Assembly: GCA_903813345.2 (NCBI GenBank)
Contig: CAIIXF020000001.1
Span: 28,892,001 to 28,956,000 of the forward strand
Length of the DNA: 64,000 nucleotides
Reading direction: 5' to 3'
Source of the DNA: Owenia fusiformis
Taxonomy: Eukaryota
Both the position numbers and the translations under genes were made by a program. This document shows positions 1 to 27,855 of this stretch, one piece after another. Each line of letters starts with the position of its first letter. Positions within the stretch are counted from its first letter, which is position 1. The notes under the pieces are model-generated. The model was not told the origin of the DNA. It saw only the letters and a program-made list of their open reading frames with translations, and did no database searches.

Positions 1-329
1 ACAAAATAAGATTTTCTTGGAATGTGTACATTCTCCAATTTTGAAAACCCAAAGGCAATGCTTATGTATGAAATATGGGAAGTTGCCTACCCTTCTAGTT
101 GAACGCCCATGATATAACTAACTTTCATATTTGACTAATCACAAGCTGCGCCTTCTTCATTTATATTCATGTCCATGTACACTTGTACAGTAGTGATCTT
201 GGGAATGGTACATCTGAAGTATTTATTCCTTTGGTAGAATAATTCGATTTCTAAATGGATGGCTCAGACAACAGTTAAGCATCATATGTAAGACAACAAT
301 GGCAAACACAAAATATTTATGACTGACTT

Positions 330-792
330 TTGACCTTTCTGGTAACATTGAATTTCTGAGAACTTGTAGATGATTTTGAAAAAAAAATTGACCTTGAGAA
401 GATCATTGAAGGTCAATTTTTTTACCTTGAGAATGTCATTGAAGGTTAAATCTATAGTCAGATTTGAACTTTTGAGAACTTGAAGATGATTTTGAATAAA
501 ATTGGTCAATTTGAAGCAAGTTGAAAAAAGACCTTTTGACCTTTTTTGACCTTGAGAAGGTCATTGAAGGTCAGATGTTAAATCTAAAGTCAAATTTGAA
601 CTTATGATACCTTGAACATGATTTGAAAAAAATTGAAGTCAGTCTACACAGTATTTGTTAAGTTATTGGAAGAATTTGTTACAGATGCCAACCGCCGCCT
701 GCCACCCACCGATCGCCAAACACCAACCACCGCCACAAAAAACGGTCACCATAACAATATGTCACCACTTCTTGGTGGTGACATAGTTAAAA
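330..792 (+). mobile_element. Non-autonomous Helentron/HINE-like interspersed repeat
   Basis: Internal TGACCTTGAGAA..TCATTGAAGGTCA tandem repeats, a C/A-rich tract, and a terminal hairpin ATGTCACCAC-TTCTTG-GTGGTGACAT near 759-784 followed by an A-rich end. Related shorter copies at about 54335-54457 (+), 26900-27010 (-) and 62395-62480 (-). Family assignment is inferred from architecture only. Confidence 0.45.
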
Positions 793-2520
793 GCCAGAAT
801 ATCTACTTGTATTTCACAAGTACATACTGAATTGTTCACAAAAACTGACTTTTTACATGTAGGTAAAAATATTACGAATGGATATGGTTAATGACCGAAT
901 TCAGGTATTTATGATTAAAATGTAATTATAGTGCAGTCAGAATGTGGGTTTCGGCGTGCGTTCAGAGGGATTTTATGGGACATAATTTTTCATGTTACTA
1001 CTATGATTATACATATTTGTATGGATTATTAGATCTTAGTTTTTCAGCTTTTAGATTTTGTGGCCATTTTACCCCCCATGGGCTTAAATTTGGACCCCTA
1101 CTATAAAATTGGGCAAGAACTCAAAAAATACTCAGTGGAATGTTTCCAAATTACAAAGTTATATTGGTATAGGCTAACTGAATATATGATAAAAATTTCA
1201 TGTCACATGGTTAAGTGGTTGCCATGGAAATGGATAAAACATGCCCATCGGGTGTCAATTTTCAGGCCAATTTTTCAGGACTGACAGAGTCATTTCATGG
1301 ATATTTTGTCACCAATGTGTTAGGAAGGGTTAAAATGTAAATAGAAAACTTCTATAATATATTAGCAACAACTGTATGTAAAGATCAGTCCACAAAACCT
1401 CAGATTTTGGCCTTGTATTGGTCCATGACTTATACAGGGGTCTATTTCATAGACTCGAGCTCCCACATTGGATGGATGCTATAACTTTTGAAATAATGGA
1501 GATACAGGTCTCATTTTTTCAGATCTTCATAAATGGTTAGTTTTAAGTATTTTATTTTACTTTGGGAGCTGACATGTGATTGGTTGCCATGGTAACCAGG
1601 GTTTTAAGGAAATTCTGACCCCCAGATTGGATGGATGCTATAACTTTTGAAATAAGGAAGATACAGGTCTCATTTTTTCAGATCTTCATAAATGGTTGGT
1701 TTTAAGTATTTTAATATACGTTGGGAGCTGGTATATGATTGGTTGCCATGGTAACCAGGATTTTAAGGAAATCCTGACCCCGACATTGGATGGATGTTAT
1801 AACTTTTGAAATAAGGGAGATTCATGTCTCATTTTTTCAGATTTTTGACAATGATTGATTCAAAGTATTGATTTAGACTTTGAGAGCTGAAATTTGATTG
1901 GTTACCATGGAAATCAGGGTTTTGTTGAAATTCAGACCTCCACAAGTGATGAACACTATGACTCTTAAATACAGCCAGATAAGATATAATCTTTTCAGAT
2001 GTAAGATAATAATAATATGTGTGTATTTTATTAGACTTTGGAAGCTAAGATTTATTTGTCTGCCATGGGAACCATGTTTCATTGTCATGGTAACTGCTGT
2101 TTTCGTTTTCAGATTCACCTTTATTCTAGATAGGTCACATGACATAAAATACCAAATTGCTCAAAGTTACCATTTTATTCTTAATTTGGGGATTTTTTTC
2201 TATTTTATATGATTTACATGCTCATGACTCAATAATACTAGAGATGCAAACATTGTTTGACTCATAAAATATCAAATACTAGTAAACAATACATGTATGT
2301 CTGACAATATTGCCTTATTCCATACGACTAGTTCTTACAAAAGTTCTGACTCCTAATTTGTTCATCTGTACTCATCATTACTGTTTTCATTTAGCACAAT
2401 TTCCTCTTAACATCAATTTCTGTTGGAATGAAGGATTGTTTTGACCATTCTTGAGATAAGGATCCTCAGGGGATATAGTCCACTCATGCAGTATTGGACT
2501 TGGCAGAATGGGTTAAGACT

Positions 2521-3011
2521 GGTCCCTGTGGGTTCACTGTATATAAAATTTGGCTGGGATCCTAGGCTGAACCCTCAGCTATCAATATGTTCCCATCCAA
2601 TCTGTCAAATTCGAATGTGTTCCGATATCAACCAAAATAATGCCAAAAAGCCATACCAAATGCCCAAATATAGGACCAGTGCCATACCAAATATCAAGAT
2701 ATGAAAACATGGCCATTCAAAATTTCTAATGCCTCGAGAAGAAGGCAGATCATTGAGGAAAACAACCAAAAACAACCTCACATTAAGGATATACTAGATC
2801 AATGCCATACATGTACAACAAGTGAGGGGCAACATATTTTTCACGACCATTCCCAAATCCGACCTTTGCCATACCTCTCAAGTCATAATTGGGAGAGCAT
2901 TCTCATACCAGATCCTAAAATTTGGGTCCATTGCCATATCAAATGTTAAAAGTAACCCTCCTGAGCTGAGGATCCCCTCAAGGTTTATATACAGTGAACT
3001 CCTGGGAGACC
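2521..3011. mobile_element. MITE nested in the left arm of the Academ relic
   Basis: Imperfect ~45-bp TIRs (CCCTGTGGGTTCACTGTATATAAA.. versus ..TTTATATACAGTGAACTCCTGGG). The segment has no counterpart in the right arm. Confidence 0.6.
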
Positions 3012-3452
3012 TCTGTTTATTTAGTAATGTTTCTCCTTCCAAATTTATGTTTTATCATCCATCCTCTTCAAATGTTATAATGAGTAATCATTACAAGGTG
3101 GAAGAGTTCATCATTTAATTCATTGCATTTTATTAGCTGCTATGAAAGCAGTGAAGGACCAATCTTGAAAGATGGGAAGAGTTGAAATGTCAACACCTCC
3201 ATAAGTGAGGGCAGGACTGTTATGTTTTGGAGAATATCTTATGTGAAACCGCTCATATCGTTATCTATTGATGTAAGTTACAAATATATTTTTGTAATTC
3301 TGCTGTACTTTTACTGGTGAACAATTAAACTTTGGATTTTATTGTGTCAGGAATTTCTATATTGATTCCTATTATGAAGAGAAAATAACCTTAAGAACCT
3401 CAACTGATGTGAACTCTGTCCCATTAGATGTCAGAGGCTCAACCCAACCCCT

Positions 3453-3990
3453 GTAGCTGCAAATCTAGGACCAAGTCCTGTGTGAAGCTATATTAGCCTT
3501 CAATGCGTTTACTGGATCAGATTCCTCCAGTGCCTTTCTGAACAAAGGAAAAGTAAATCAACTGAAACGGAAGACAAACAATTCTTAAAGTTGTTTTCTT
3601 CAATAGGAAACAATATAGGAATTCCCGCTACCATAAAATCGAAAGTTGAATTTCACCTGCAAAAATACAGCAGAAATAGAAAAATAACTGCCACTTATAG
3701 ATTACGAGATGAGCTGTTTCCCATGAGATACAGAACAAAACAGAACAGTGCTGCCCTCACTTATGAAGGTGTTGACATTTTCTTTCACATTTGAAGAGGG
3801 TAAATTATCAAACCTATGTATGGACACATTCCCACCAGCCTAAACCCAGCTCTACCATTATGCCCAAACTGCATGAATGAACTGTGAATTCCCTGACGAA
3901 TCTTTAACACAAGAATGGTCAAAAGAATCCTTCTTTCCAACAGAAATAGTTGATATTTTTAATTAAGAGGCAATTGTGGAAGATGAAAAT
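3453..3990 (+). pseudogene. Degenerate C-terminal XPG/FEN-like (H3TH) region of an Academ-type protein
   Basis: VAANLGPS-CEAILAFNAFTGSDSSSAFLNKGK resembles the family pattern ALxAFHAFTGCDxxSxFxxKGK; ORF 3591-3794 continues it and RVNYQTYVW follows; frameshifts and stops throughout. Confidence 0.65.
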
Positions 3991-5583
3991 GATAATGATG
4001 AGTAAAAACAAGTTGGGTGTCAGAATATGTCTGAGAACTAGTAGAATGGAATGAGGCTATACTGTCAGACATACAGGATAAATTGCTAAAATTAAGAGCA
4101 AAATGATAATTTTGAGCATTTTGGTATAACATGTTGTGAATTGACCATTCTCAAATAAAGGTAAGCCTGAATAAAAAATTAGGGGTACCATGACGACGAA
4201 ACATGGTTACCATGGCAATCAAGTAAATGCTAAGCTACAAAGTCTAATTCAATACAGAAATCTAATTAATTTTTAAGATCTGAAATGATGATATCTGTAT
4301 CTGCTCAAATTCAAACGTTAAAGCATTTATCAATTGAGGAGGTCCAAATTTCAATAAGACTCTAGATATCATGGTAACCAATCAAATTTAAGCTCCCAAA
4401 GTCTAATTTAATATTTATTTAATATTTATAATCAATCATTGTCTAAGATCTGAAGTAATGAGACATGTATCTCCCTTATTTCAAAAGTTATAGCATCCAT
4501 CCAATGTTGGGGTCAGAATTTCCCTAAAACCCTGGTTACCATGGCAACCAATCACATGTCAGCTCCCAAAGTAAAATAAAATACTTAAAACTAACCATTT
4601 ATGAATATCTGAAAAAATGAGACCTGTATCTCCATTATTTCAAAAGTTATAGCATCCATCCAATGTGGGAGCTCGAGTCTATGAATAGACCCCTGTATAA
4701 GTCATGGACCAATACAAGGCCAAAATCTGAGGTTTTGTGGACTGATCTTTACATACAATTGTTGCTAATATATTATAGAAGTTTTCTATTTATATTTTAA
4801 CCCTTCCTAACACATACGTGACAAAATATGCATGATATGACTCTGTCAGTCCTGAAAAATTGGCCTGAAAATTGACACCCGATGGGCATGTTTTATCCAT
4901 TTCCATGGCAACCACTTAACCATGTGACATGAGATTTTTATCATATATTCAGTTAGCCTATACCAATATAACTTAGTAATTTGGAAACATTCCACTGAGT
5001 ATTTTTTGAGTTCTTGCCCAATTTTATAGTAGGGGTCCAAATTTTAGCCCATGGGGGGTAAAATGGCCACAAAATCTAAAAGCTGGAAAACTAAGATCTA
5101 ATAATCCATACAAATATGTATAATCATAGTAGTAACATGAAAAATTATGTCCCATAAAATCCCTCTGAACGCACGCCGAAACCCACATTCTGACTGCACT
5201 ATTAGGCCTGGAGTATCTTTTTAAATCTGTCAAAGGTTTTTCATAACACTTCAAATGAATATTTTCCAAATAAATCTAAAACAACAGAATAGTATATTTT
5301 TGCAATTAACAGATTCTCTATTTTATTGTATAACATGGACGGAATATGTTTGGTTTCACAAACTGTTATCACTTTGGCTTCAACCATATACAAATATGAA
5401 GATTCTTGAGGTAATTAAAGAACTTTTCCCCCTGCTGTTTTGGGAAAGGATGAATCCTACATGTAGCTGCAGCGCTGTCTGTATATCCAACTACAGAAAA
5501 AGCATTGTTATACATGTATATTCTTAGATGAGATCATGTACCATCATGCACCCCTGTGCACCATTTTCTGAGACATTTTCCGC

Positions 5584-8500
5584 TCAAAACACAATTTGCT
5601 CTTCATCCTGAACTCCTGATATATCATCCTGATATTCATCTGTCAGTTTACGCCACCAAGGCTGGTTCAATAGTTTTATTTCATTGATATGATTCTGTCT
5701 CGCTTTAGCAGCCACAGGAGCTGACCTACTGGTATACAGTTCAATGTCTTTATCACTTGCATCCACTAGGCTGGGGGCATCTGGAAGATATAATATGTAA
5801 ATACATGTGTACATGTACATATGTTAACATCCATATTCATTTGTATTGGGTCATTTTTCACAAACAAAAACTTATTTGATCATATTCACTTGGAATCATT
5901 TATTTACGAAATAAACATGTTCTCGGTTGATTTACATGATTCTGCTGAACTGTCCATAGTTGTATATATAGTTAATTTGATATACATGCGATGTATAATA
6001 ATCCAATGGCCCACGGAAATTATGACAACAGATTTCAGACAGATTTTTGCACGGACTTTCTGACCACAAAAACAAATGCATATTTAACAGTTTAAAGGAC
6101 AACTGAAATAGCTTTTCTCAGCTTGCAGCTACAAAAATGTGGTTTTCTCCATTGTAAGCCCAACGCAGAGTTCTTGCGATAGCCATTATAAAATAAATGT
6201 TAGATAACTGCTAACGCTCATAGATAACGAAATAAAAGTAACTGATCAATCAAATTGGCCCCCACGTGATTAGTAACGTCATATACAAAATATAGCTTTG
6301 GTTTATTGGTTCCTTAGTAATCACAATGTCACGGCAACCATAGGATTGTTGTGTAAACAAATAACAAAACATTTTGGCATTATGACGTCATGATCTAATG
6401 GACCAAAATGGGCCGCTGAGGGGCCAGTGAGAGATCACGTGGGGGCCAATAACGTCACAACCAATTCGAATATTGCTTATTAAGCAACTATAACGATCGT
6501 TAGAGTGAAATTATTTTCACACTACTGATGAGAAAACATGTCCAAATACATTTATCAAAAAGTTTATTGATTCCTTTAGGTTTTAAAATACCATTTCATA
6601 TCTGCTTTAATGTCAACTTTGATTACTACTCACAAAAAGCTAAAACTGTCTGAAATCTATTGCCTGATAACTTCCATGGCTTTTTCCCTGGATCCTCAGA
6701 AATTGAGCATTTTTGTGTTGCACAAATATGTACAGTATATAAGTATATGTTTTATGTATCGTATAACAAATAAATGTTCACTTACTCAGTAAAAGATCAG
6801 CATCTGTTTCAAGCCTTGCCAGCAAAGCTTCTCTCCGTTGTTCAAGTTTACGTATGGTCTTACACTGACTGATATGGCTCCGAATGGCATCCTGCACCTT
6901 GTTATGGAGTTCTTCCTGTTGGGGACGAGTCTTGGAGGGAAACTGAAAATATTTTAAATTACGGGGTACTTGCAACTTAATATTAATTTTAAAATTGTAT
7001 TTCTACTGTGTATCTGAAGATCACCTTGAGACTGTTATGTGTATTTAGCATAAACTTGAAGAAATGTTTTTTGGTAAAAAGTTATTTTTATCAAGAATCT
7101 CCACAGTCCACACCTGTATTTTTTTACATTTGTACCCTCTACATCTATTCATTTGACCTGATGTTGTCAAAAAGTGAAATACTCAATATTATGTAATTTG
7201 ATCAAGTATATAAAAGTGCTAAACATAATTTTATTTTTATTTATTTATTTGCCAACACTTTTATAACAGTGGCACATGGATTATTATCCAGTGCGGCTAC
7301 ATACAACCATACAGTATGAATAAAAATATACAGTCAATCAGTCATGTATAATTTCTTTAAAACAATGTTGCATATACTAAAAAAATAATCAAAGACATAA
7401 ATCTCTGGGCTTGTACAATTGGATTAAAAAGCGTTTTACAATGCTATCAAATGCGGCAAGACTCTTGCCCCCATTTTGAAAAAGTCTCATCAGCAAGCAT
7501 AAAGGTCAATTTCTCAGCCAGATTCCCCTAAATGAAATCAGAAAATAAATCGGAGGGACATTGCTTACAAACAGTGTGGAAAAAGGATTCACGTTCTTCT
7601 TTAAAATGTTCACACAGCAGCAACCTATGCTGTAAGTCTTCATGTACATTCAAACTACAAAGTTTACCTTTGCCATCACTTTTGCCCCATGCAGAGTAAT
7701 TGGATTGAAGGCAAAAATTGTTGGTTCTTGCAAGAAATTTGAGTCTAGAACCATAAAAATCAAAGTCTTGTTTTAGATAAAATTTCTTGGTATGGATGGT
7801 ATGGATATCTGAGAGTAATTCACAGTGAAATTACCATGGGCATTCATTAGATTGAAAGCCCATGGAAATTACCAAAGAAAAGAAGTCTATTGAGTATACT
7901 AGTGACTTGGTGAAGTACTAGCCATTTACAAATTGTCCATGATACATGTTCAAATACAATACCTTTCATATATTTAATTGATTTAATAATAGAGATCATT
8001 ACATAAATGTTACATCAATATCCCTTGAGGCAGTTGAAAAGATATTTAGCACTGAAATTTCACTAATGAATTCAAGTTGGCCTGTTAGCCAAGCCGTGAT
8101 CGTCTAGTGGTTAGGACCCCACGTTGTGGCCGTGGTAACCCAGGTTCGAATCCTGGTCACGGCATGGCCAACATTTTTTTATATTCAAATCCTGGAGGCT
8201 ATTTCATAAAAATTTAAAACTTTGAAATTGCGTTTATGATTTCAAGTTGGCCTGCTAGCCTAGCCGTGATCGTCTAGTGGTTAGGACCCCACGTTGTGGC
8301 CGTGGTAACCCAGGTTCGAATCCTGGTCACGGCATGGCCAACATTTTTTTATATTCAAATCCTGGAGGCTATTTCATAAAATTTAAAACTCTGATATTGC
8401 ATTTATGATTTCAAGTTGGCCTGCTAGCCTAGCCGTGATCGTCTAGTGGTTAGGACCCCACGTTGTGGCCGTGGTAACCCAGGTTCGAATCCTGGTCACG

Positions 8501-11500
8501 GCATGGCCAACATTTTTTTATATTCAAATCCTGGAGGCTATTTCATAAAAATTTAAAACTCTGATATTGCATTTATGATTTCAAGTTGGCCTGATAGCTT
8601 AGCCGTGATCGTCTAGTGGTTAAGACGCCACATTGTGGCTGTGGAAATCCAGGTTTGAATCCTGGTCACGGCATTTCCAATATATTTTTTTCTTTTGTAA
8701 TCCTCAAGGCTATTTCATAAGATTTAAAACACTGATATTGCATTTATGATTTCAAGTTGGCCTGATAGCTTAGCCATGATCGTCTAGTGGTTGAGACCCC
8801 ACATTGTGGCCGTGGTATCCAGGTTCGAATTCCTGTCATGGCATGGCCAACATTTTGATTTCGTTTTTCTGTATTTGAATCACTGAGCCTATTTCATGAC
8901 ATTTTTTACACATATTATTTCTGAAAAATCCATTCCAAAGTTAACAATTTATTTCGGAAATATCCTAGATTTTAATGTTCTTTGTGGAATAATGTTCCAG
9001 ATTTTGTAACAATTTTTTTGCTTGTTATTTAATGTCTCAATCTAATTTGGTCTCATAATTCCTTTTCATGCTTTTTAATACAAGAAGTTCATTTCTATCC
9101 CTGAATTAGTCTTAATAGGGAATTCATAGATTTTAAACTTTATTTTTTCATTTTTCAAATGTTCATATCCACATTCATTATCATGAAATATCTTAAAGTC
9201 AGGGTGCACTTTGATGAAATTACATGACCATGTGCTATTTTCAGATAAACATAACTCATTCCACACATCATCTACATCTTTCATTCTTGCACAAAAGATG
9301 CATTAGTGTACCTAGACTATTAATTAAGGGGTGGATAATTCTTCAGAATTTTTAAAATAATAGAATATTCAGTGGTTTACTTTTCAAGATTGCAAAAAAA
9401 ATTCAAAAGTGCACTCTGGCCTTAATCTAAGCTTGATATATTATACGAAATTATATTTGGAATGGTAAAGAATAAAATCAGATATATTTGGGAAATAATG
9501 CTCTAGCCTAGCCAAATGCATAGGGAGTAAGTCACCCCCTCCCTCTTATAGTCTATATATATATATAATATAAGTGATATTCGATGGTTTCAAAAGTGAT
9601 ATTCAATGGTTTCAACTTTAACTTTATTAATTCTGCTTGAGTCTCAGATTCCTCAAAATGATTTTTTCAAAATTTTCATTTTTTCTGATTGTTTAATGTT
9701 CGCTGGGATATAATTTCCCATGGGATAAACCTATGGTTTTGAAGATAATATCAATTAAATCCACTCATATCATACATCAATATCCACATATGGACATAAA
9801 TTATATTTTTTCAAAACCATAGGATAAAATTCAGAGTCCCTGGAATCAGACCTGGACCGTTCAATGGTAAAGTCAATTTTACCCCCAATATTATTCAATA
9901 GATTTCAATAGGAAGTAAGAGCCAGGAAACATTTAATTCATAAAATGGACATCCATGTTAATACTGACATCATGCTGAGGATGCAATTAACCAATTTGTT
10001 ACATCTACAAATAATAATTAATAATTTTGAATGTTTGGACATAATACCTGGGCTAATTGAAGAGTCAGAGATAGAGAAGAGGTGTCAAAAATAAAGCCAA
10101 AATGATAATTAACCAAATAACATGTTCTAAAACATCTAAAAAATATAATGTCTCCTAATAAGTTCCACATTTTATCAAATGGTGCAGTAATTAAAGAATT
10201 CATATGGAGATATGTGTCTACAATTCTATTTGTGTACATGGACCTCTGATGTGTACTTGCTTTGTCTTAATGTAAACCCACATTTAAAAACAACTTAAAA
10301 TAAATATTTTGAAGGGAGATGGGAGGGGGCTTCAAAAACCCAGATCATGTTAATTTCTATCAATAAAAATATGAAATATCCCTAGTTCTTGAGAATATAA
10401 ACCATTGAATATTAGGAAAGTAAAACTGAAAAGGAAATAAGATGAAAAGATTATGAAATAAGAATCTCTTATTTTACCTTTAATTTTCAAAGACAATATT
10501 ATCATTAGAGTTTGGTGTCAGGATGCCACAATGTTGAAGTATAAAAACATCTAAGATGTAAAAAGGAAATAACTTTTCTTGAATCTGGTTACTTCCTTTT
10601 GTTTCTTTTATTAACTGACAGAACTATCTAAGGTTCAATCAATGATAACAATCATAATCTAAGCTAATAACCCCAGATTGAACCTTAATTTATGACACTT
10701 TGTTTATCAGGTTAATTAGAAACAATAAAGGAAATATTGGCTAAATATCCCAATAGGAAGCTATTGTTTCAAACAAGAAACAATATTTAGTAATCAAAGA
10801 AATTAACCATATAAACACCAAAACAATCAAACACACAATACATCTTGATGCTAATTTTAATTACATGCGTTGGTAATTAAGGGGTTAATCTAGGTAATAA
10901 AAGCCCAAGAGTTGTTAAGTTGGTGACATTTTGAGAAGGTGTTTGGAGTGGAACAAAGGGTGTGGGTAATCCTGACTATAAACCCTGACCCTAACTCAGG
11001 GCCAACACTCTCAAATTTAGATGAAACATGGAACTCACAAACATGCGGATTAGGAGTATGGCATCCCCAGTTGGTAAGTTTTTGTTTTCATCATCTCCAT
11101 TGTTTGTGACATCTTCCTAATTATTATTTGTTTGTCATCAAACTGCTAATTAATGACATTATTGTTTGCAATGTAATGTGAATATAAAGATAGTCTCAGA
11201 AAGGGTACTGCATTCATTCAACAATGTATGGGACATTAACAAAGTGATTCTTTCAAGAATTTGATTTCGCATCTTTAAAAAGTTAAAACACAGTGGGACA
11301 GGATATTTTGTTCTATGTAGGACATAAGCAAAGATGCCATGGGTTCACATACAAGACTTTTTTTCAGGTAAATTAAATTGCCACAAAACTTGATGCAAAG
11401 ATTGACTGTGGTAGCTCAACTTAGATGGATAAAGACTCAACATATTTAAATCAATTAATTAATAAACTCTCACAGACTTCATTGACATGGAATTTAGATA

Positions 11501-14500
11501 CGAATCTTTAACTTCAATTGTAACTATACAAATCATATGCCAATGCTCTAATTGCACAAAGGAAGCCATTTTGAAAATTTGATGTCATACAAAAGGAAGT
11601 CATGAAGTGAGATGATTAATTAGAAGCCACTTATGTCTTCATGTATCTTACACATATAGGTATATAACATCAACACTTGGTACAATGCAATCATTGCACA
11701 ATGGTTCCAAACACAGAACATCTTTAATTTACAAGAGAACACTCAGGAAAGTTTTATGAATTTTTCTCAATTAGCTGGCTATTAAGGTACAGTAGTTATA
11801 GGACATCAGTCTTAGCCTAGGTAATCGATCATCTGCAAACTCAACACTATCATTTATGATAAGAATTGGTATTAGAGAAACAAGTATTTTGCTACAAGGC
11901 AACTATTGGCAAGTTGTTGGAAGGTTCTAATTTGCGAACATTTCAACAACGAGCCAAACTTTGAATTGTGACATGACAACACAGAACAATGAACATACCT
12001 GGATATGGTGAAGGATCTGGTGAAGGTTTTACCAAATCTTTACATTTTTCAACTATTGGCAAGTTATAGGAGACACTTTACTATAGAACAGTGGATCCTG
12101 AACTTGTCAAATGTCGAATATGGTTTATCAACAAGTATTAAAAGTAGGTCGTTAAATTATTGAGCGTTGTGTGTAACCAGTATCTTCAAACTTTGTAATG
12201 GGATCCGGAATGGAATAAGAGAATACATAATTTGGCAAGTTTCAGGAGACGCTTAAAAATTGAATAGCGGATTCTGAAGTTGTCAAATTTTGTGCTTTCT
12301 TAAATTAAACTAACAATACAAGAAAAAGATGGTACAATTAATCCATGGATTGGGTCTGTTTTTAATCAAGGATAAAAAAGAAGGGAAATATATTTGTCCA
12401 TCATAACCTTGCCATAACTGGGACTTCTCACTGGAGTTTCACAAGTATTGGCAAGTGAAGGAGGCACTGTTTTAATACCAGTGTCCTATCTTTTGTCAAA
12501 TTCTGTGAACTCAATATAATCAACTTAACTCTTACATGGCTAGGGGTGTCAAATTGTGAATTACAACTATTGGCAAGTAAAGAAGGCACTGTTTAATGTC
12601 AGTGTCCTTTCTTTTGTCAAATTCTGTGAACTCAATATAATCAACTTAACAATTACATGACGAGAAGCTTCAAATGGAGTATTACAAGTATTGGCAAGTG
12701 AAGGAGGCACTGTTTCAATTTCAGTGTCCTTTCTTTTGTCAAATTCTGTGAACTCAATATAATCAACTTAACTCTTTCATGGCTAGGTGTTTCAAATGGA
12801 GTATTACAAGTATTGGCAAGTGAAGGAGGCACTGTTTCAATTTCAGTGTCCTTTCTTTTGTCAAATTCTGTGAACTCAATATAATCAACTTAACTCTTAC
12901 ATGGCTAAGAGCTTCAAATGGAGTATTACAAGTATTGGCAAGTGAAGGAGGCACTGTTTCAATTTCAGTGTCCTTTCTTTTGTCAAATTCTGTGAACTCA
13001 ATATAATCAACTTAACTCTTACATGGCTAAGAGCTTCAAATGGAGTATTACAAGTATTGGCAAGTGAAGGAGGCACTGTTTCAATATCAGTGTCCTTTCT
13101 TTTGTCAAATTCTGTGAACTCAATATAATCAACTTAACTCTTACATGGCTAGGAGCTTCAAATGGAGTATTACAAGTATTGGCAAGTGAAGGAGGCACTA
13201 TTTCAATTTCAGTGTCCTTTCTTTTGTCAAATTTTGTGAACTCAATATAATCAACTTAACTCTTACATGGCTAGGAGCTTCAAATGGACTATTACAAGTA
13301 TTGGCAAGTGAAGGAGGCACTGTTTCGATTTCAGTGTCCTTTCTTTTGTCAAATTTTGTGAACTCAATATAATCAACTTAACTCTTACATGGCTAGGAGC
13401 TTCAAATGGAGTATTACAAGTATTGGCAAGTGAAGGAGGCACTGTTTCAATTTCAGTGTTCTTTCTTTTGTCAAATTCTGTGAACTCAATATAATCAACT
13501 TAAATCTTACATGGCTAGGAGCTTCAAATGGAGTATTACAAGTATTGGCAAGTGAAGGAGGCACTGTTTCAATTTCAGTGTTCTTTCTTTTGTCAAATTC
13601 TGTGAACTCAATATAATCAACTTAAATCTTACATGGCTAGGAGCTTCAAATGGAGTATTACAAGTATTGGCAAGTGAAGGAGGCACTGTTTCAATTTCAG
13701 TGTCCTTTCTTTTGTCAAATTTTGTGAACTCAATATAACTAACTTATTTCTTACATGGCTAGGAGTTTCAAATGGAGTTTCACAAGTATTGGCAAGTGAA
13801 GGAGGCACTGTTTCAATTTCAGTGTCCTTTCTTTTGTCAAATTTTGTGAACTTGACAACATCAACCTAACTCTTACATGGCTAGGAGTTTCAAATGGAGT
13901 ATTACAAGTATTGGCAAGTGAAGGAGGCACTGTTTCAATTTCAGTGTCCTTTCTTTTGTCAAATTCTGTGAACTCAGTATAATCAACTTAACTCTTACAT
14001 GGCTAGGAGCTTCAAATGGAGTATTACAAGTATTGGTCCTTTCTTTTGTCAAATTCTGTGAACTCAATATAATCAACTTAACTCTTACATGGCTAAGAAG
14101 TTTCTAATGGAGTTTTACAAGTATTGGCAAGTGAAGGAGGCACTGTTTCAATTTCAGTGTCCTTTCTTTTGTCAAATTCTGTGAACTCAATGCAATCAAC
14201 TTAACTCTTACATAGCAAGGTATTTCAAATGTAGTGTTACAAGTATTGGCAAGTGAAGGAGGCACTGTTTCGATTTCAGTGTCCTTTCTTTTGTCAAATT
14301 CTGTGAACTAAATATAATCAACTTAACTCTTACATGGCTAGGGGTGTCAAATTGAGTATTACAAGATTTGGCAAGTGAAGGAGGCACTGTTTTTATAACA
14401 GTATCCTTTCTTTTGTCAAATTCTGTGAACTCAATATAATCAACTTAACTCTTACATGGCTAGGGGTGTCAAATTGAGAATTACAAGTATTGGCAAGTGA

Positions 14501-17500
14501 AGGAGGCACTGTTTTAATATCAGTGTCCTTTCTTTTGTCAAATTCTGTGAACTTGACAACATCAACCTAACTCTTACATGGCTAGGAGTTTCAAATGGAG
14601 TATTACAAGTATTGGCAAGTGAAGGAGGCACTGTTTCAAATTCAGTGTTCTTTCTTTTGTCAAATTCTGTGAAATCAACATAATCAACTTAATTGTTACA
14701 TGGCTAGGAGTTTCAAATTGAGGATTACAAGTATTGGCAAGTGAAGGAGGCACTGTTTTAATATCAGTGTTCTTTCTTTTGTCAAATTCTGTGAACTCAA
14801 CATAATCAACTTAATTGTTACATGGCTAGGAGTTTCAAATTGAGGATTACAAGTATTGGCAAGTGAAGGAGGCACTGTTTTAATATCAGTGTCCTTTCTT
14901 TTGTCAAATTCTGTGAACTCAACATAATCAACTTAATTGTTACATGGCTAGGAGTTTCAAATTGAGGATTACAAGTATTGGCAAGTGATGGAGGCACTGT
15001 TTTAATATCAGTGTCCTTTCTTTTGTCAAATTCTGTGAACTCAATATAATCAACTTAATTCTTACATGGCAAGGTGTTTCAAATGGAGTATTACAAGTAT
15101 TGGCAAGTGAAGGAGGCACTGTTTTTATATCAGTGTCCTTTCTTTTGTCAAATTCTGTGAACTCAACATAATCAACTTAATTCTTACATGACAAAGAGCT
15201 TCAAATGGAGTATTACAAGTATTGGCAAGTGAAGGAGGCACTGTTTTAATATCAGTGTCCTTTCTTTTGTCAAATTCTGTGAACTCAACATAATCAACTT
15301 AACTCTTACATGGCTAGGAGTTTCAAATGGAGTATTACAAGTATTGGCAAGTGAAGGAGGCACTGTTTCAATTTCAGTGTTCTTTCTTTTGTCAAATTCT
15401 GTGAACTCAACATAATCAACTTAATTGTTACATGGCTAGGGGTGTCAAATTGAGGATTACAAGTATTGGCAAGTGAAGGAGGCACTGTTTTAATATCACC
15501 GTCCTTTCTTTTGTCAAATTCTGTGAACTTGACAACATCAACTTAACTCTTACATGGCTAGGAGTTTCAAATGGAGAATTACAAGTATTGGCAAGTGAAG
15601 GAGGCACTGTTTTAATATCAGTGTCCTTTCTTTTGTCAAATTCTGTGAACTCAATATAATCAACTTAACTCTTTCATGGCTAGGAGCTTCGAATGGAGTA
15701 TTACAAGTATTGGCAAGTGAAGGAGGCACTGTTTCAATATCAGTGTCCTTTCTTTTGTCAAATTCTGTGAACTTGACAACATCAACCTAACTCTTACATG
15801 GCTAGGAGTTTCAAATGGAGTATTACAAGTATTGGCAAGTGAAGGAGGCACTGTTTCAATTTCAGTGTTCTTTCTTTTGTCAAATTCTGTGAACTCAATA
15901 TAATCAACTTAACTCTTACATGGCTAGGCGCTTCAAATGGAGTATTACAAGTATTTGCAAGTGAAGGAGGCACTGTTTCAATTTCAGTGTTCTTTCTTTT
16001 GTCAAATTCTGTGAACTCAACATAATCAACTTAATTGTTACATGGCTAGGGGTGTCAAATGGAGTATTTCAAGTATTGGCAAGTGAAGGAGGCACTGTTT
16101 CAATTTCAGTGTCTTTTCTTTTGTTAAATTATGTGAACTCAATATATCAACTGAACTCTTACATGGCTAGGAGTTTCAAATGGAGTATAAAAAGTATTGG
16201 TGAAGGCACTATGTGTGAGTACTTATCAGCATAGGACACAATATACCACAAGTGTTTTAATTTTTTATGCTTACGATAATGCTCTTTTTGACAAAGGTGT
16301 CACTGAATCAACTTTCTATGATCCGTCTTTTTGAAATTCAATCTCAATATTTCTCCAACTGATATCATTTAGGGGCTTCAGTTTTTTCATTAAGATGCTG
16401 AACACAGCAGTTCAAGTTAAAGTGTATTCCTCCAACCTGTAAGAGAATTGGGATGAAGTTGATGAAAGACAAACATTGAAACAGCTGGACTTACTGGGTG
16501 ATTTTCTCTCCAATCTAAGATTTTTGCCTGTAACTCTACCCTCCTGTCATCAGTCAGACCTGGTGGTCTCTGCCATGGGGGAGGCTCACGTCTCTTCACT
16601 CTTAATCTCTCTAACCATTTACGAACCTTTAGTAAACCAGAATTAAAGTTATCATTGCATATAAACATTCAAATTGCATGATATGTGATGTACATATATA
16701 TTAGTATTGAAATAGTTTGGCATTTTTTCCAGCAGACTCTTGTGGTACATGCATATTATATGACTGTTTTTATTTCCTGAATTTTAACATTAATTTCTAA
16801 AGATATGCTGTTGAGAATAAATAAAATCTAAATATATATTGGTTCTGAGAAGGAGATGAATGAAAGTGAATGGTTTCAAGTACTATACTAATAATAATTA
16901 AATCTCAAAGTTTATTTATAGACATTGAACCTGGGAAGGAGCAAGGTGTCAGAACAAACATTTCAATATTTACATGAAATATTGAGTTTCTAAAAACATC
17001 ACACAAAACTTGCAAGTTCAAAACCCAAGATTTTCCCAAGAAGTTTTCAAATGGACCAATTCTATTATGCATAAAGACAAAACACCTATAGAAAGAATAT
17101 ATTGAGTATCAATACAGACATGTATGGTGTCCTTTAATATATAACTGTATCCATAGAACCTCGCGTAATACTCATATAGGCAAACATTATGTCCCAATAT
17201 TTGGCCTATGTCTATAGACACTCAAATTGATGACTCCTTGAAATTCTGCTCTCATACAGTCTTAATGTCACAACATACATATGGAATACCTACCGCCCTT
17301 TGTATAATTATCACAGATCTTAATCTCTTTGTGGCCCGTTTCCTGGCATTTGGACTACCTATGGACTTTCTTTGTCTGTACCCCCGGAATTGTGCCTGTA
17401 TTTTTATTGCAGCTCTCTGTTGTTCTTTTTCAAGGTATTGGTCCATCTGACCTATACATACCACATGTGAATAATTCAACGCAAAGGTTCATGTTAAAAA

Positions 17501-20500
17501 AATCTGGAACAATATTTCAATCTTAAAAAGCAGGAAATATTAGCTGATGTATGTATAATTTGAATGAAAGCTATTTCCAGCCTTGAGACTATACAGGGAG
17601 GGGATGATTTTTATAGATCCTTTTACAAGGTGGAGGTCACTTTTTGACACCCCTGGTGGTCAAACATTCAATGTTCTACCCACCAGCTGGTAATATCCTA
17701 ATTGCCTCCAGCTGTTTATTCCTCAGGTCCCTCATGGCCTTCTTCCTCCTTAGCAACAATAGGTGTTGCAGCTCTTGCTGCATGGCTCGCATTTCTCTCG
17801 CTTTTTCCGCCTTTTCACGTTTTGCCCTACAATGTTATTAAGTGAATCATGGCGTTAAGCAGGTCATTTCTCATGGTTTTGGAATCTCAAATCAGAATGT
17901 GAATTCAAGAGTCCTGGTTTTATGACACATTAGAAATACAGTGATAAATCAAATATCCCTTAATCTTTATTTTGAGATATATTTTACTTTATTCAATCAA
18001 GACATTCAAAATATTTCTCTAACACCTATTTATTTACTCAGAGAATTAACACTTTAATGTTGTATTTACATTATGACTTTCATAAAAGTGAAATCAGAAC
18101 AGAATTTATCCTACTTAATTACCTGAATGATTTCTGTAGTTTGCCCATAGCTTTATCAGCTCGATTAAGCTTTTTTCTTGTCTTGAAACTTCTAAACATG
18201 GCTTGTATTGTACAAGCTGCTCTATGCAGCCTCTGAATAGCAAATAAAAACAATGAATGCAAATGCAGTAATTCAAACTCCTAGATACTGAATGTGTTTT
18301 TCAACACATTGGCATACTTGTATTGAAAGGATCATTATTGTGGTGTCCATTGCAATGTACATGTATGCTAAAACATTCTCTGGAGAACACTACATAATGG
18401 TATCTGGATTACTATATGAGTGATCAATTATAACTACTTCTTCACAGATTGTATGGCTATTTACTTCAGATAGTTTTGCTGTTTTATACCTCCATATCTG
18501 CCTTTTGTTTATTGCCTGTATCCAATAACAGCAGTAATTGCCTCAGATCTCTTCCAAATCCCTTGCCAGTCCACTTGCTTAACAATGGCCTCAGACCTCT
18601 AAATAATATTCATAGAATATATTGTGTATGAAGCTTTATGATATACAATGGATCTATCAATATAAGAAAGAAGAACTCATCAAATAATATGTTATAAGAC
18701 ATGAGAGGCCCAGAAATATACAGGGTCGTACAGTATACCCCCACTCAGAATGATGTAATTTCAATATCATGGCCAATATGCCCATGTTGCCAGGTCAAAA
18801 TCCCCATAAAGAAGACACCTCTTTCATGCAGTCACGTGTCATCAAGCTTTTACATTTTACATTAATTTCAGAAAAGATTATTCAAAATTTTCAATAAAGA
18901 AGTGAAACATTTTAGAGTAATGTGTAAATCTTACTTGTATCTGCTACACAGTATCTCTATCATAGTAGCCTGGGCATCACACAGTGTCAGTAGGCACTTT
19001 GTACTTGCACTTAAAAAACATACAGTAAATGTTATTGTTAATTCAGCAATCCATGCATGGTAAAGACTACAGTATAATTAAGGTAGGGCCAGCTTGAATC
19101 AATTAACAGAAAGAATAAACAGTGATCTATTTCTAAAAAAATTTCGAACTTAAACTTTTTTAAATATTATATTCTAAAAATAAAGAATTCTTCCATCCAT
19201 TGTTGTCACTATGTAATTCACAATGCATGGATTAATGAGAAAAGACCTTGAAATTTCAAAAATTTTATATCTTTTGTCAAATTCAATTAACATTTCAATA
19301 CATTCTCAACAGATTTGTGTTATGCACATAACCCTGATGAAAAAATTATGTTTTGATAAAACTCAAATTTTTGAACATTTCTTTGTCTAAATTGGCATTT
19401 TGTCAAGAAATTAGAATTTCACATTCAACTGAGAATTTATCCCATAGAGAGCAGTATTGAACTTACCTTCCTACAGATTCATCCATGCTAGCAGAGAGTT
19501 TGTAGATAAGCTCATCTAATATATTATGTAGGACCTTGTTATCTACAGTCACTGGGGCCAACCTAGACAAACAAGATGTATCATCAGTTATGATTTACAG
19601 AAAATCAGGCCAGCATGATCAACAGTGACCAACATGATCAACATTTAAATAACTAGCTCTCATTGTGAAGCTAGTCCCGCCAGTATTCAGTAAGGCCATG
19701 TTTTACTTTTCAATATTCACTCAAGTAGACTAATAAAGGGATGGTGAGTATTATAAACCATTTGCATGTGTTTGAGTTGGCTTCTTTAAAAAAGAGCTTC
19801 TTTGAGTTAGAGATAATCCCTTGAACTAGCCTTAATCAATCAAAATACTGAGAATATGGTCGATGAAATCCAGCAATCCAATCAAAATATCATTCACTAA
19901 ATTTTGCTTCTTTAAAAGAGAACTTCTTTGAACTAGCCTTAACCAATCAAAATACTGAGAATATGTTCAATACGAGATCAAGCAATCCAATCAAAATATG
20001 ATTTCCTAAATATTTTGCTTTCATAAGAACCTGGCATTTAGTTTATATTGAAACTGTCATTGAAGGGTATGATAGTTACTTTTGAGGTGACTAAGATCTC
20101 ATCAGCATAATTGTAAGTTTATTTTTCCTGTACAGAGTCTAATATATTAGATATTATATAATCTGAACAATGACTACAGATGTACTTACAGATTGACTCT
20201 AACTACACTTATTATTATACTGATGACTACAACAGCTGTTTCTACATCATCTGTCAGCAGCAGCTGTAGCAGCCATGGTGAGCTCAAAGCTGAATTAAAA
20301 TAAAACAAGTATATATTTTGATTTACATAACAAAAGTGTGATAAACCAGAATGGCTTATGCTTGATTTATAAATGGTATCCAAAACTTGAATTTTAGAAG
20401 ATTTACCATGAGTCCAACAACACATAGTAAAACCTGTCTGAGTGGAACACATTTGGTACCTCTAAAATGTGTTCCACTTGAGAGGTGTTCCACTTATGGA

Positions 20501-23500
20501 GGTTCATTTAACAATAAGTCAGTTGGTCTTGGGACTCTGAAATGTGTTCCACTTCTAGAGGTGTTCCACTTCACAGGTTTCACTGAATATATTTTCACAA
20601 TATATGGATATTTCTAATACATTTGTAACTAAATGCCTACCATTCACTGTCAAAGATGTATGACCACTAAACAAGTAACGTAAGGAATCTGCAACCAGTT
20701 TAAAGTCATCTAGCATCTGTTCTTTGCTTCTCTTGGTTGCCTAAAATGAAAAATAGTTCAAATCAATTAATTTATCATATTAAATCCTCTCTTTAAATGC
20801 TGGCCCGGGTAAAATGTACACAATGAGGGATTCTTATAACATGGTCATCAATGTAAAGAATGGATGGCTTTAGAATGAGTTGTTCACTATAGACAAGTGT
20901 GTAAATGGAATCTAAAATTATGAATCAAAAATACAAGACTTTACCACTGATGTTTCTATATATTTTTCTTGAATTCTCCATGCAAGGATTAACATATTTT
21001 CTATGGCATCAGGAAGCAGTTTATCATAGAAATCACTCTCCCCACTGGGTTCAATTCCAACACAACACTGGCTGAAAAACACACATGAAAAATATTAAAC
21101 AAACCTAGTGCTGAGCATTGAATGGTAGTATTTTGGAGTATACTATAGGAGTGTTCTAATTTTGTCAAAATCAAATACCCATTAACCTATTTAGGAAGAT
21201 TATTCTGCTTTCTATACCATGTGAATTGGTGGTGATAGAACATGAACAGAATCACTCCTCAATGCATCAATGAGCATGTATGCATTTAAAAAATTATAAT
21301 ACATTTACAGGGTTCTCACCAGGAAATTTTTAGACCTTGAATTTTTCACTGTACTCCTCCCCCATGTGTGATCAGAGATATCCTATTAGTATACTTTTCA
21401 AAATACTTCTTAAGAGATTATCTTCCTATTTTAATCACGATTCAACATTTCTAAAAGGTTTCTGACCTCCTATTCCTCATTTGTATCCAGTTTTAGGTAT
21501 TTTCCCAAGAGATTTACCACAAATAACGTGACAAAAATGTAAAATTAGACTCCGGAAAAAACACTCTAGACTCTGGAAAAGCTTTTAGACTCTGAAGCAA
21601 GAGGGTCTAAAGACATTGGACTCTGGAGGATCTCCAGAGTCTAAAAGCCTAGTGAGAACCCTGATTTACCAGAGTATAATACCCACTCCCCCCAGTTTTC
21701 TGCAAGTTAAAATGCTCAATTCTGCAAGTGAAATTAGTGAATTCTGCAAGAAGAAAGGGCTAATTCTGCAGAAATTCCGCGGATATTCGCGGCATTTTTT
21801 TATATAATATAAATAAATGTTATTAATTTATGTCTTTGTTTAACTTTCTGACGAGAACCGAAAGAAAAACTAATGGTTTTCAAACCAGTAAACGGGAAAA
21901 TATCGTGATAGTCAGGTAGTCAGTCACTACATACATGCTGCCATCTAACGGCAGAAATCAAACGATGGCGTTTAGAATTTTCACTTCGCATAATTTGGGT
22001 TATTTCTGCAAGGGATTTGACTGAAAACGTGTCAAATTGTTACAGGTAAGACTGACTTTTTAAACTTTTGGAAAATATATGGATCCTGCGGAAAATTCCG
22101 CGGAAATTGACCAAAATAGTTGATTCTGCAATTCCGCGGGCAGAGGCAAATTCCGTTCGCGCTCTGCAAACACGGAATCCTGGGGGCAGTGAATACCTAC
22201 CTCACTACTTTAGATAACTGAGCAGCTGTATTCCATCCTTGAGCAACTTTTGTATAGTCCTGTTTAAGCACCAAGATGAGCACTGGGAGTAAATCATAGG
22301 ACCATATATCATTCTTCAACTGCTTAATCTGCTTACTTCCAGAAGGGGTTGCATCTAGGTACTCTGGAGCAAAATATTTTAAGATAATAGAATGTACAGT
22401 ATTTTCAGTTTTTCAATGATTCCAGTGAAATACAGAAAATATTTTGCCAGAGACAACCGAACCGTATCACAATGGTAACGTCATTTTCACTCTGTATCCC
22501 ACGATAAGTTGAGAGTGTGTAAATGTACAGAATATATTTCAGTCACATGGACCAATCAGGTTGCAGGGAATTTCACCATTATGGAATAAATGTATATATC
22601 TTTTCATTGTAAACCAATGTAGAATAATGTTGAATTTTCAAAGGACTAATATTGTAGACTTTCAAGATAAACTTATGGACTGTCAATTATACTCAGTAGA
22701 TGGCATACATATTCAGTGGTGTAAATTATAAACATGAACCCCCATAAAATATATACACAAGCATTGATTCAGGCTAATGGCTGTTAAGTGAACATTTTTG
22801 ACTCCGAAAACCTTGTTCGTGAAGTGTACTTGTCTTGACCGTGCATAATAATGACCTAACGCTGCAGGGCCATCGTTTCTCATTGGCACAAGACGACAAT
22901 GCTGTTTCTGGTCAATCTGAATATCAGCGAAATGTCCGAGAGTATCAACGAAAGGTAAGTGCCCAGTGGTATGTATTAGATTGATGCCAATATTTAAACT
23001 TGGTGGCAATCTAAATTTCTTTTTACTATCTGTGACCATTATCTCAAAAAAAAAGACATTTGACAAGTACAAAAGATTATATGATTAGATCTAAGCTTAG
23101 ACTAGAGGTAAAAATAAACTAAATAAACCTAAAAACTAAATAAAATAACAGTGAGTAGGCTAACATTTAAAAAACAGGCACAGCTTACTCTACCGACTGT
23201 CAGCTCTGGGAAGTTGGATGTATGTATACTTGAAGAGAATAAATCAAGCCCATTTTCACATAACGCTGTGCTGAGTAGTGTTTATAACACGCTATATATT
23301 TGAATCAATACATAATTTAATTGTTGTTACCTTATTTTGTTCCTTTAACAGTCTGTTGTTGCAGTAAATCAATGTTCTATTAGACAACAAAACTTTTGAA
23401 TTTAGATTCAAGCCATTTTAGGTCTCGCCAGATCTCGTGACTATCGAAAGTAAAAATTTGCTACAAAATAACTTGCGTTAGCTAAATATGAATAGTCACG

Positions 23501-23948: not shown

Positions 23949-24240
23949 CCCAATACAGATATACACTAAGAAATATCACCGAAATATTGATTTTGACATT
24001 TTGAAATTTAATTCAGAGTTCGCGCGTAATTTATTTTGGACCGCATTTTAGTACTAAATAATACCATTATCTGTTAATACTTAAACATTACATTTAAATC
24101 ATAATTATACGCTTGTACTATAGATTCATCAAGGAAAATATTAAGCTATTATCACATTCATTTATAGAGAAAATAAAAGAAAACGATTCAATCATAAATG
24201 ACCTTCACCTTGCACTCAGTTGACCTTTCAATATTTTGAG
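23949..24240. promoter_or_regulatory. Probable bidirectional promoter between IQCB1 and RPE
   Basis: Only 292 bp separate the divergent start codons (23948 on -, 24241 on +). Confidence 0.65.
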
Positions 24241-27200: not shown

Positions 27201-27855
27201 ATGTTACAGTATATATTTTTCCAGGTAGCAACTCTTAGGCAGCAGTCACAGTTACTTGACATTGAAGTAGATGGCGGAGTGGGACCTGCTAATATAGACC
27301 AATGTGCAGAGGTAGGCATTCTGTGGACATTAATGAACATCATATTTTTGGTACATTTCTAGTTTGCACAATACACCATGCAGTAAATGATCTTGTGACT
27401 ATCTAGCCGCAACATTTCCATCCTGGAAATTCTTTAATATGTCACATTCCTAGCGTCACATCATAGATGAGCTTTATTTGGTTGGTTGACTTCGAGTAAC
27501 ACCATACATGACCTCGTGATACCATACCATCAGTATTTCTGTTAACAAATCATCTATACTATTTGGCAAACTGAACAAACCGTAAACCCCATTGAAAACC
27601 TAAATCTATGACCTACATATAGATTAACAGTAAGGTCTAGATCTTCACCAGGGGTATACAATCTCTCCAGTTGACCTCTTAAAAGTAGTTCACATAAATG
27701 AACATGTTGATTTTTAATTGATGTTATTCCAGGCAGGGGCCAACATGATAGTATCAGGTACAGCTGTAGTAAAAAGTGACAATCCACGAGAAGTGATCAA
27801 CCAATTACGTAGATCTGTTCAGGAGGCTATACAGAAATCTCAGTTAGAGAGGTAG
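24241..27855 (+). CDS. RPE: Ribulose-phosphate 3-epimerase, 230 aa
   Basis: Exons 24241-24480, 26142-26249, 26715-26849, 27225-27311, 27733-27855 (693 nt). Motifs [64 protein letters not shown]. Confidence 0.98.
24628..25852. mobile_element. TTAA-flanked (Kolobok-like) non-autonomous element with 15-bp subterminal tandem repeats
   Basis: TTAA-AAGGGGTCAACCC(AGTTGTCCGAAACCC)n on the left and the reverse complement ending GGTGCACCCGTT-TTAA on the right; lies in RPE intron 1. Confidence 0.75.
26413..26500. repeat. (GTGTA/GTATA)n microsatellite
   Basis: Direct inspection. Confidence 0.85.

Follow-up and report, generated by a model that had tools for sequence, protein, structure and literature searches.

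Thirty-three plus-strand hairpins in an IQCB1 intron of Owenia fusiformis as a putative, tandemly amplified microRNA gene family

Intron 12 of the IQCB1 gene of Owenia fusiformis is far longer than its neighbors and holds tRNA genes and RNA hairpins on the strand opposite to the host gene, which raises the question of what these hairpins are, and whether they could represent a family of microRNA (miRNA) genes. The window, that is, the whole stretch of DNA analyzed here, comprises 64,000 nucleotides (nt) of contig CAIIXF020000001.1 (assembly GCA_903813345.2, positions 28,892,001 to 28,956,000 of the forward strand). A sequence-only reading of the window had proposed a lineage-specific, amplified small-RNA cluster within the intron, made of an ordered series of tRNA-His genes, unique hairpins, three diverged hairpins and about thirty near-identical hairpins. 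Part of this proposal stands: the folds are specific to the plus strand, the 5' arm of the hairpins has an invariant start at UUGGCAAGU, compensatory changes occur in the stems, and variation is depleted in the arms. The series of unique hairpins and the link to the tRNA genes did not stand. Overall, the 33 plus-strand hairpins located between 11.88 and 16.16 kb are best interpreted as a lineage-specific miRNA gene family that was tandemly amplified, a reading to which we assign a probability of roughly 0.62.

A tandem array with a unit of 122 base pairs (bp) was delimited at 12432-16200 by Tandem Repeats Finder (TRF), and an anchor search resolved 30 units at a spacing of 121-122 bp, with one 213-bp gap where a unit has lost 31 bp. 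The block TTGGCAAGT occurs 32 times on the plus strand, always within 11800-16300, and not once on the minus strand. A covariance model built from nine representative hairpins was then run unfiltered over the whole window, and its matches were all on the plus strand: the 30 full units scored 99-118 bits, the three diverged hairpins (H1, H2 and H3) 65-68 bits and the deleted unit 59 bits, as compared to minus-strand scores of at most 38 bits; elsewhere in the 64 kb, nothing had an E-value below 0.4. The three diverged hairpins were therefore recovered as previously described, and the "about thirty" near-identical ones can be specified as 30 complete units, one internally deleted unit and one end fragment (Table 1). 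Within the array, the 22-nt 5' arm TTGGCAAGTGAAGGAGGCACTG is identical in 26 of 30 units, and 29 of the 30 fold at -21.2 kcal/mol or better, the remaining one being weakened to -17.7 kcal/mol. No coding potential was found in the array, as stops recur in all frames and open reading frames do not exceed 89 amino acids (aa).

We then focused on the fold and its strand. On the plus strand, the array unit reaches -32.6 kcal/mol (z -3.44), with none of 200 shuffled sequences as good, while the minus strand reaches -18.4 kcal/mol (z -0.57), with 58 of 200 shuffles as good; this difference arises because the G:U pairs carry their G on the 5' arm. All hairpins are built alike: about 9 bp of basal stem lead into a 4x4 internal loop, above which an upper stem of some 22 bp, bulged at one or two single bases, ends in a loop of 9-12 nt. 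In the consensus array unit, 20 of the 22 upper-stem positions are paired and the loop measures 9 nt. According to criteria of the MirGeneDB type, an animal microRNA gene is recognized by an imperfect duplex of about 22 nt, a mature arm and seed that vary less than the loop and flanks, a primary transcript from the strand of the hairpin, and reads of 20-26 nt that derive from both arms and have 2-nt 3' overhangs and a uniform 5' end. All 33 hairpins have at least about 16 pairs in the duplex of about 22 nt and a loop of at least 8 nt, as is typical of miRNA hairpins. When 921 nt were folded in context, H1-H3 and the array units U2 and U3 appeared as separate local hairpins, and U1 gave no clean hairpin. 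A dispersed palindromic transposon, similar to a miniature inverted-repeat transposable element, was also considered as the origin of the hairpins, and was rejected on the basis of the one-strand fold (z -3.44 versus -0.57) and of the lack of further copies within the 64 kb.

Comparison of the hairpins with each other points to conservation of both fold and sequence. In the alignment of nine hairpins, no long block other than TTGGCAAGT, at the beginning of the 5' arm, is invariant, and the bases that face this block vary, forming G:C in H1 and G:U elsewhere. Covariation was evaluated on an alignment of 33 sequences (30 distinct rows), in which 95.2% of the cells are paired. Changes on both sides were detected in 13 of 27 stem pairs, as compared to 2.9 ± 1.4 in 500 shuffles, none of which reached 13, and to 5-11 pairs in six slid controls. 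Compensatory changes are present in the upper as well as in the basal stem, the latter covarying in five of eight pairs.

The shape of the stems and the distribution of the changes also bear on a different kind of small-RNA source, namely a hairpin-RNA locus producing endogenous small interfering RNAs, of the kind of Drosophila hp-CG4068, or another source such as precursors of PIWI-interacting RNAs. Such transcripts would be cut by Dicer without Microprocessor, and would act on one target gene by extensive complementarity. Tandem repetition of one hairpin and a position antisense to a host gene do resemble such loci as the sequence-only reading describes them. However, the stems are short (about 22 bp in the upper and 9 bp in the basal part, about 31 bp in total) and are interrupted by bulges and an internal loop, rather than forming a long, near-perfect inverted repeat; the basal stem covaries, as expected for a Microprocessor substrate; and what is conserved is mainly the beginning of one arm (9 nt) and not the duplex as a whole. 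We consider this explanation very improbable, and the analogy to hp-CG4068, brought forward by the sequence-only reading, fits more poorly than that to a miRNA cluster.

The variation among the array units is informative as well. Whole units are 91.8% alike on average, and nucleotide diversity across the 30 units is lowest in the 5' arm (0.015) and the 3' arm (0.035), followed by the 3' half of the basal stem (0.069), and is highest in the 5' flank (0.10), the spacer (0.121) and the loop (0.165). The 5' arm is the least variable 22-nt window in the unit, and the five variants found in it are all singletons. Moreover, columns with variants common to at least two units amount to 1 of 44 in the arms, versus 24 of 78 elsewhere (Fisher p = 1e-4). 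Among these paralogues of one genome, the putative mature arm and seed are thus more conserved than the loop and flanks, and the combination of conserved arms, free loop and free flanks is the one that miRNA precursors, as opposed to a neutral satellite, should show. In that case, the array would offer a clean natural example of selection on miRNA hairpin arms inside a tandem repeat.

These figures have to be weighed against the possibility of a silent, satellite-like tandem repeat, in which a 122-bp unit with a chance dyad, or a former miRNA gene, would have been amplified by unequal crossing-over and would no longer be transcribed or processed. This would agree with the next to nothing seen over the locus in three RNA-seq runs, with units that differ by about 8%, with one unit being internally deleted and another weakened to -17.7 kcal/mol, and with the lack of a match to any curated family. 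Nevertheless, a neutral repeat should vary evenly, and in this array diversity in the arms is 4-11 times lower than in the loop or the spacer, while variants common to several units avoid the arms. In addition, compensatory changes preserve the fold in the three older paralogues, which also retain an unchanged 9-nt block, and the fold is specific to one strand. Altogether, we regard a silent repeat as unlikely.

Several observations weigh against the interpretation of the hairpins as miRNA genes. Three raw paired RNA-seq runs bearing the same species label, together with one contig set (X2), were placed on 8860-12800 at 90% likeness; 6-12% of each RNA-seq run was read, and stage, tissue and RNA selection are not given for these runs. 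In every bin of the region of H1-H3 (11764-12291), depth was 0 in all three runs. Over the first three array units, depth was 0-1.6x, with reads in both directions and 0 in one run, and the few array-unit reads with a listed difference count carry about 12 differences. The plus-strand primary transcript that the sequence-only reading had suggested looking for was therefore not seen in these runs, which is a weak result, given the unspecified stage of the samples, the small share of each run that was read, and the equally blank rest of the intron (only stray reads were placed on 9916-11763). What the runs exclude is an abundant, stable primary transcript in those samples; they are silent on small RNAs, on other stages and on transcripts that are quickly processed. 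Furthermore, only tRNAs were recognized by Rfam at gathering scores, and no family was reached by the hairpins. The evidence for conservation comes from paralogues in a single genome and, as selection on single copies in a 30-copy array is expected to be weak, conservation of the arms may partly predate the amplification. Finally, the covariation derives mainly from the three diverged sequences H1-H3, in an alignment fitted to the covariance model.

The contig set X2, for which the label "RNA?" was guessed, was set aside as evidence of transcription, as its short contigs with allelic differences resemble genomic DNA. In this set, 28 of 30 bins are covered, and the longest listed contigs measure 144-430 bp. 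Over unique bins, depth sums to 13-120, and over bin 12688-12800 to 2158, a ratio that, as a rough figure, fits tens of unit copies and not thousands, and is compatible with the array alone. The allele represented in X2 differs in spacers between hairpins, with 11 bp inserted behind 11999 and 12 bp deleted at 12197. Of the substitutions listed for the same 411-bp contig, six fall in a spacer and one, at 12255, affects the loop of H3; another, at 12098, lies in the 3' arm of H2 and turns a G:C pair into G:U. Contig depth in X2 is 75-120 over 10.5-11.4 kb, as compared to 13-37 in some neighboring unique bins.

Taking the hairpins as a miRNA family, its origin and expression can be outlined. The family would have grown by local duplication, giving H1-H3, followed by tandem amplification of the 122-bp unit, and RNA polymerase II (Pol II) would produce a single polycistronic primary transcript from the plus strand, in antisense orientation to IQCB1. 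Transcription by Pol II is likely because TTTT is found inside the 3' arm of every array unit, which argues against read-through by RNA polymerase III (Pol III), and because no AATAAA exists on the plus strand between 11462 and 16815. Each hairpin would then be cropped by Microprocessor at the junction of the basal stem of about 9 bp and the upper stem of about 22 bp, and Dicer would subsequently take off the 9-nt loop. The 5' arm, starting at or beside the invariant UUGGCAAGU, would be loaded into Argonaute as the guide, with the seed UGGCAAG or a register one base to either side. This choice of arm is suggested by its higher conservation, its 5' U and a pairing at its own 5' end that is weaker than that of the 3' arm: the 5' arm begins with U and its 5' end pairs as U:A, U:A, G:C and G:U, as opposed to the G:C-rich 5' end of the 3' arm. 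Moreover, the conserved block starts at the first U of UUGGCAAGU and the preceding base differs in H3, which favors UGGCAAG as the seed of a guide starting at that U; the start may also lie one or two bases off.

Regarding the relationship to known families, permissive scans of Rfam gave diverging assignments. H1 matched mir-31 with 25.0 bits (E 0.0055), agreeing with the consensus at 14 of 15 consecutive positions in the mature arm, while H3 matched mir-676, a mammalian family, with 25.2 bits (E 0.0071), and the top match of H2 was mir-3156 (16.7 bits). The array unit matched mir-263 with 23.6 bits (E 0.00042) and mir-31_2 with 16.2 bits. For MIR-31 (RF00661 / RF03550), the gathering scores of 51 / 97 bits were not reached by H1 or by the array unit, nor was that of mir-263 (RF00706; 51.3 bits) by the array unit, with H1-H3 giving no match to the latter family. 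As none of these scores amounts to half of the gathering score and the assignments are inconsistent with one another, the hairpins were placed in no known family. Membership in mir-31 was set aside as unproven, given that the array unit is assigned to mir-263 and H3 to mir-676 at the same score level, and the resemblance of H1 to mir-31 is retained as a lead only.

A related explanation is that the hairpins are no new family, but a branch that derives, with an altered seed, from a family already known in bilaterians (MIR-31 or the mir-263/183/96 group). The match of H1 to the mature arm of mir-31 and that of the array unit to mir-263 can be read in this way, but the two assignments are mutually exclusive and each remains under half of its gathering score (51 and 51.3 bits). 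Furthermore, H3 fits the mammalian mir-676 equally well, so that scores of this size look like hairpin noise, the best match of H2 is to yet another family, and no mir-31 consensus 21-mer was found in the window at up to three mismatches. A derived branch seems to us rather improbable. Concerning novelty, a literature search with the 5' arm, in DNA and in RNA letters, returned a single matching paper, on an unrelated bacterial subject, and a metagenome scan with the 22-nt 5' arm gave 0 matches. No description of the locus was found in the main text of the literature on Owenia microRNAs or amplified clusters, supplements not being covered. According to its description, MirGeneDB 3.0 annotated Owenia fusiformis with small-RNA reads (PMC11701709), and the hairpin locus may already be listed there for this species.

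Table 1. Coordinates of the hairpins and of the other features in and around IQCB1 intron 12 (positions in the window).
Feature	Position	Strand	Evidence
Diverged hairpin H1	11884-11988	+	-31.1 kcal/mol, z -5.9; 66.4 bits
Diverged hairpin H2	12034-12137	+	-25.2 kcal/mol, z -3.9; 67.6 bits
Diverged hairpin H3	12210-12316	+	-32.7 kcal/mol, z -6.1; 65.3 bits
Tandem array, 30 complete 122-bp hairpin units	12426-16158	+	TRF; anchor spacing; 99-118 bits
Dead array unit, 31-bp internal deletion removing most of the 5' arm and the loop	14011-14084	+	213-bp spacing; 59.3 bits
Degenerate end fragment of a unit, array boundary	16175-16212	+	13.1 bits only (model match 16175-16282)
First AATAAA after 11461, possible poly(A) signal of a putative read-through primary transcript	16816-16825	+	motif search
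Three identical tRNA-His(GTG) genes	8093-8164, 8263-8334, 8432-8503	+	ARAGORN; Rfam tRNA, 62.2 bits each
Two diverged tRNA-His copies	8602-8673, 8773-8843	+	ARAGORN; copy 4, 65.6 bits; copy 5 (71 nt), below the Rfam gathering score
Dispersed repeat, outside the RNA cluster	9124-9915	.	RNA reads 90-95% alike, both directions
IQCB1 intron 12, 9552 bp, host of the tRNA-His genes and the hairpins	6943-16494	-	splice sites; NCBI protein P0121 joins the flanking exons; IQCB1 orthology

The tRNA-His genes that lie upstream in the same intron are more easily explained. ARAGORN detected five tRNA-His(GTG) genes on the plus strand at 8093-8843, as previously claimed, and these sit in a 170-bp tandem repeat of 4.7 copies. 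A cloverleaf with the GTG anticodon was obtained for all five, and four of them reach the Rfam tRNA gathering score of 29 bits, with 62.2-65.6 bits. A run of seven T directly follows copies 1-4, so that the Pol III terminator attributed earlier to each intact copy was found as well; shorter T runs follow copy 5. The set is an ordinary Pol III tandem array, with three copies intact and two decaying. Like the tandem tRNA gene arrays of other animal genomes, it is built of a repeat, here of 170 bp, carrying tRNA-His(GTG) and terminators, its only oddity being the intronic site beside a hairpin array. The tRNA genes and the hairpins could also be one functional unit, in which the tRNAs would serve as an insulator, a chromatin opener or a processing handle of the hairpin transcript; strand and intron are indeed common to both. 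However, 3 kb of unrelated sequence, dispersed repeat included, lies in between, a T7 terminator follows every intact tRNA copy, and no hairpin adjoins a tRNA. No link between the two was found that would bear out the suggested role in insulation or open chromatin, and we hold a joint unit to be scarcely credible; rather, the tRNA-His array, 3 kb upstream of the putative miRNA family, would consist of independent Pol III genes in the same intron. Just 3' of the last tRNA-His copy, at 8860-9123, a depth of 0.9-3.3x was observed in all three RNA runs, exclusively from pairs with the first mate on the plus strand. This suggests stranded libraries and a one-strand transcript, whose strand depends on the library type.

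The stretch between the tRNA genes and the hairpins was where more than ten unique hairpins had been placed (8.9-11.9 kb). Single stem-loops were counted in every 80-nt window, at a step of 5, over the first 30 kb, on both strands and at three energy thresholds. Between 8901 and 11880, the plus strand has 7, 3 and 1 single hairpins at the three thresholds and the minus strand has the same numbers, corresponding to 2.35, 1.01 and 0.34 per kb, as compared to 3.9-4.6, 2.6-3.3 and 1.5-1.9 per kb in the flanks (1-8000 and 16251-30000). The top plus-strand candidate in this stretch (10926-11010) has a z of 0.07, no better than shuffles. With a density below the background of the window and no strand bias, the unique hairpins, and with them the ordered series, are nonexistent.

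Other features were observed in this part of the intron. On the minus strand, that of the host gene, an 80-nt hairpin at 11016-11095 folds at -23.7 kcal/mol (z -4.74, 0/200 shuffles as good), with z -1.28 on the plus strand; it stands alone in intron 12 as a candidate structured element. A TATAAA is present on the plus strand at 10977, followed about 95 bp later, at 11073, by GGTAAGT, which resembles a consensus splice donor; together they could mark the first exon of a plus-strand non-coding transcript running into the hairpins, without support from RNA reads. RNA depth over the dispersed repeat reaches about 250x, both directions summed, and 76-78% of all placed RNA reads continue into unlike sequence. 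As these reads are 90-95% alike to the repeat and mostly run into other sequence, it is copies elsewhere that are transcribed. Self-comparison of 6943-12430 with the window showed, besides the self-matches of the tRNA repeat, one 63-bp match, from 9238-9300 to 37204-37266, and the filler of intron 12 is not explained by repeats within the window.

The assignment of the host gene, as well as the number and coordinates of the intron given by the sequence-only reading, proved right. P0121, a 592-aa NCBI protein labelled Owenia fusiformis, is 100% identical to exons of the window on the minus strand, which were placed by tblastn between 23948 and 5587. IQ motifs are present in P0121, and among its named relatives in animals the top matches are IQ calmodulin-binding motif-containing protein 1 (IQCB1), with 39-53% identity at 92-100% query cover. 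Across intron 12, the exon junction in the protein reads ...ILDWRENHP / FPSKTRPQQ..., with the halves at 16495-16626 and below 6942, and the minus strand provides a GTAAG donor from 16494 downwards and a ...TTTTCAG acceptor ending at 6943. The intron is oversized as claimed, since the other measurable IQCB1 introns in the tblastn mapping range from about 200 to 1590 bp, as opposed to 9552 bp. Another NCBI protein labelled Owenia fusiformis is 100% identical to the ribulose-phosphate 3-epimerase exon at 24241-24480.

Hairpins were also observed in other IQCB1 introns (17631, 20421, 21576-21591 and 22116-22121), with -23 to -32 kcal/mol and about equal on both strands; these represent palindromic DNA and not RNA structures of one strand, and are probably remnants of small transposons. 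A large inverted repeat (928-1981 / 4199-5202) is located downstream of the last IQCB1 exon, with outer arms of 519 nt that have 98% complementarity and are 3.2 kb apart, and with additional arm segments at 71-94%; it looks like a foldback or long-terminal-inverted-repeat element. Finally, a short imperfect repeat that occupies about 2 kb at 40844-42810 is open in three plus-strand frames, reading as peptides rich in His, Pro, Ser and Ile, and most likely represents a micro- or minisatellite, not a gene.

Comparison with known systems places the hairpin array next to the amplified miRNA clusters. Drosophila hp-CG4068 has in common with it the tandem repetition of a hairpin, but the Owenia hairpins have the size, the bulges and the conserved basal stem of Microprocessor substrates. 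The C19MC cluster of primates is likewise a lineage-specific array with one pre-miRNA hairpin per repeated unit of non-coding sequence; its units, however, are much longer and its hairpins diverse, whereas the Owenia unit measures 122 bp and the hairpins are near-identical. Closer in layout are the high-copy clusters miR-430 of zebrafish and miR-427 of Xenopus, in which tens of tandem hairpin copies carry one seed; clusters of this type are expressed in a burst when the zygotic genome is activated, and clear maternal mRNAs. The likeness consists in tens of same-seed hairpins in tandem at one locus (30 units plus three diverged hairpins in Owenia), implying a large dose. Family and seed are different, with no match to these families in Rfam, either at the gathering score or in permissive scans, and the Owenia array is nearly homogeneous, 26 of its 30 units having identical 5' arms.

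About 30 copies of one guide would result in high output from one promoter, and such arrays otherwise serve to supply much product within a short time, as in early embryos. The high copy number suggests a need for a large dose and, with the embryo-expressed tandem cluster of the annelid Capitella teleta as a precedent (PMC8915122), a role of the array in early development is plausible but unproven. A more far-reaching version would make the array the Owenia counterpart of miR-430, that is, a single-seed array of about 30 copies fired in a burst in the early embryo or germline to clear a group of mRNAs; its firing would also interfere with IQCB1, a gene of ciliogenesis, and couple the burst to the timing of larval cilia. 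We consider this a speculative and improbable extension; if true, transcription of the array, provided that it reaches the AATAAA at 16816, would run antisense towards and across IQCB1 exon 12.

High-copy, single-seed miRNA arrays are known mainly from vertebrates. Among spiralians, the only high-copy miRNA array found in the literature was an embryonic cluster in another annelid, Capitella teleta, where novel and non-conserved miRNAs expressed in embryos lie on one scaffold as tandem duplications (PMC8915122). Its authors liken the cluster to miR-430 and raise the question of whether similar clusters exist in other annelids (PMC8915122). The two cases are alike in that both are found in annelids and consist of tandem duplications at one locus; they differ in that expression was shown in Capitella, while the Owenia array is a candidate read from genomic sequence and is likened to the Capitella cluster by its arrangement. 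At most, the Owenia locus is probably another lineage-specific, tandemly amplified miRNA cluster, a kind already known. The Owenia lineage is described as sister to most other annelids (PMC12257675), and a second annelid array would allow one to ask whether dose amplification of young miRNAs for early development has been repeated, or is old, in annelids.

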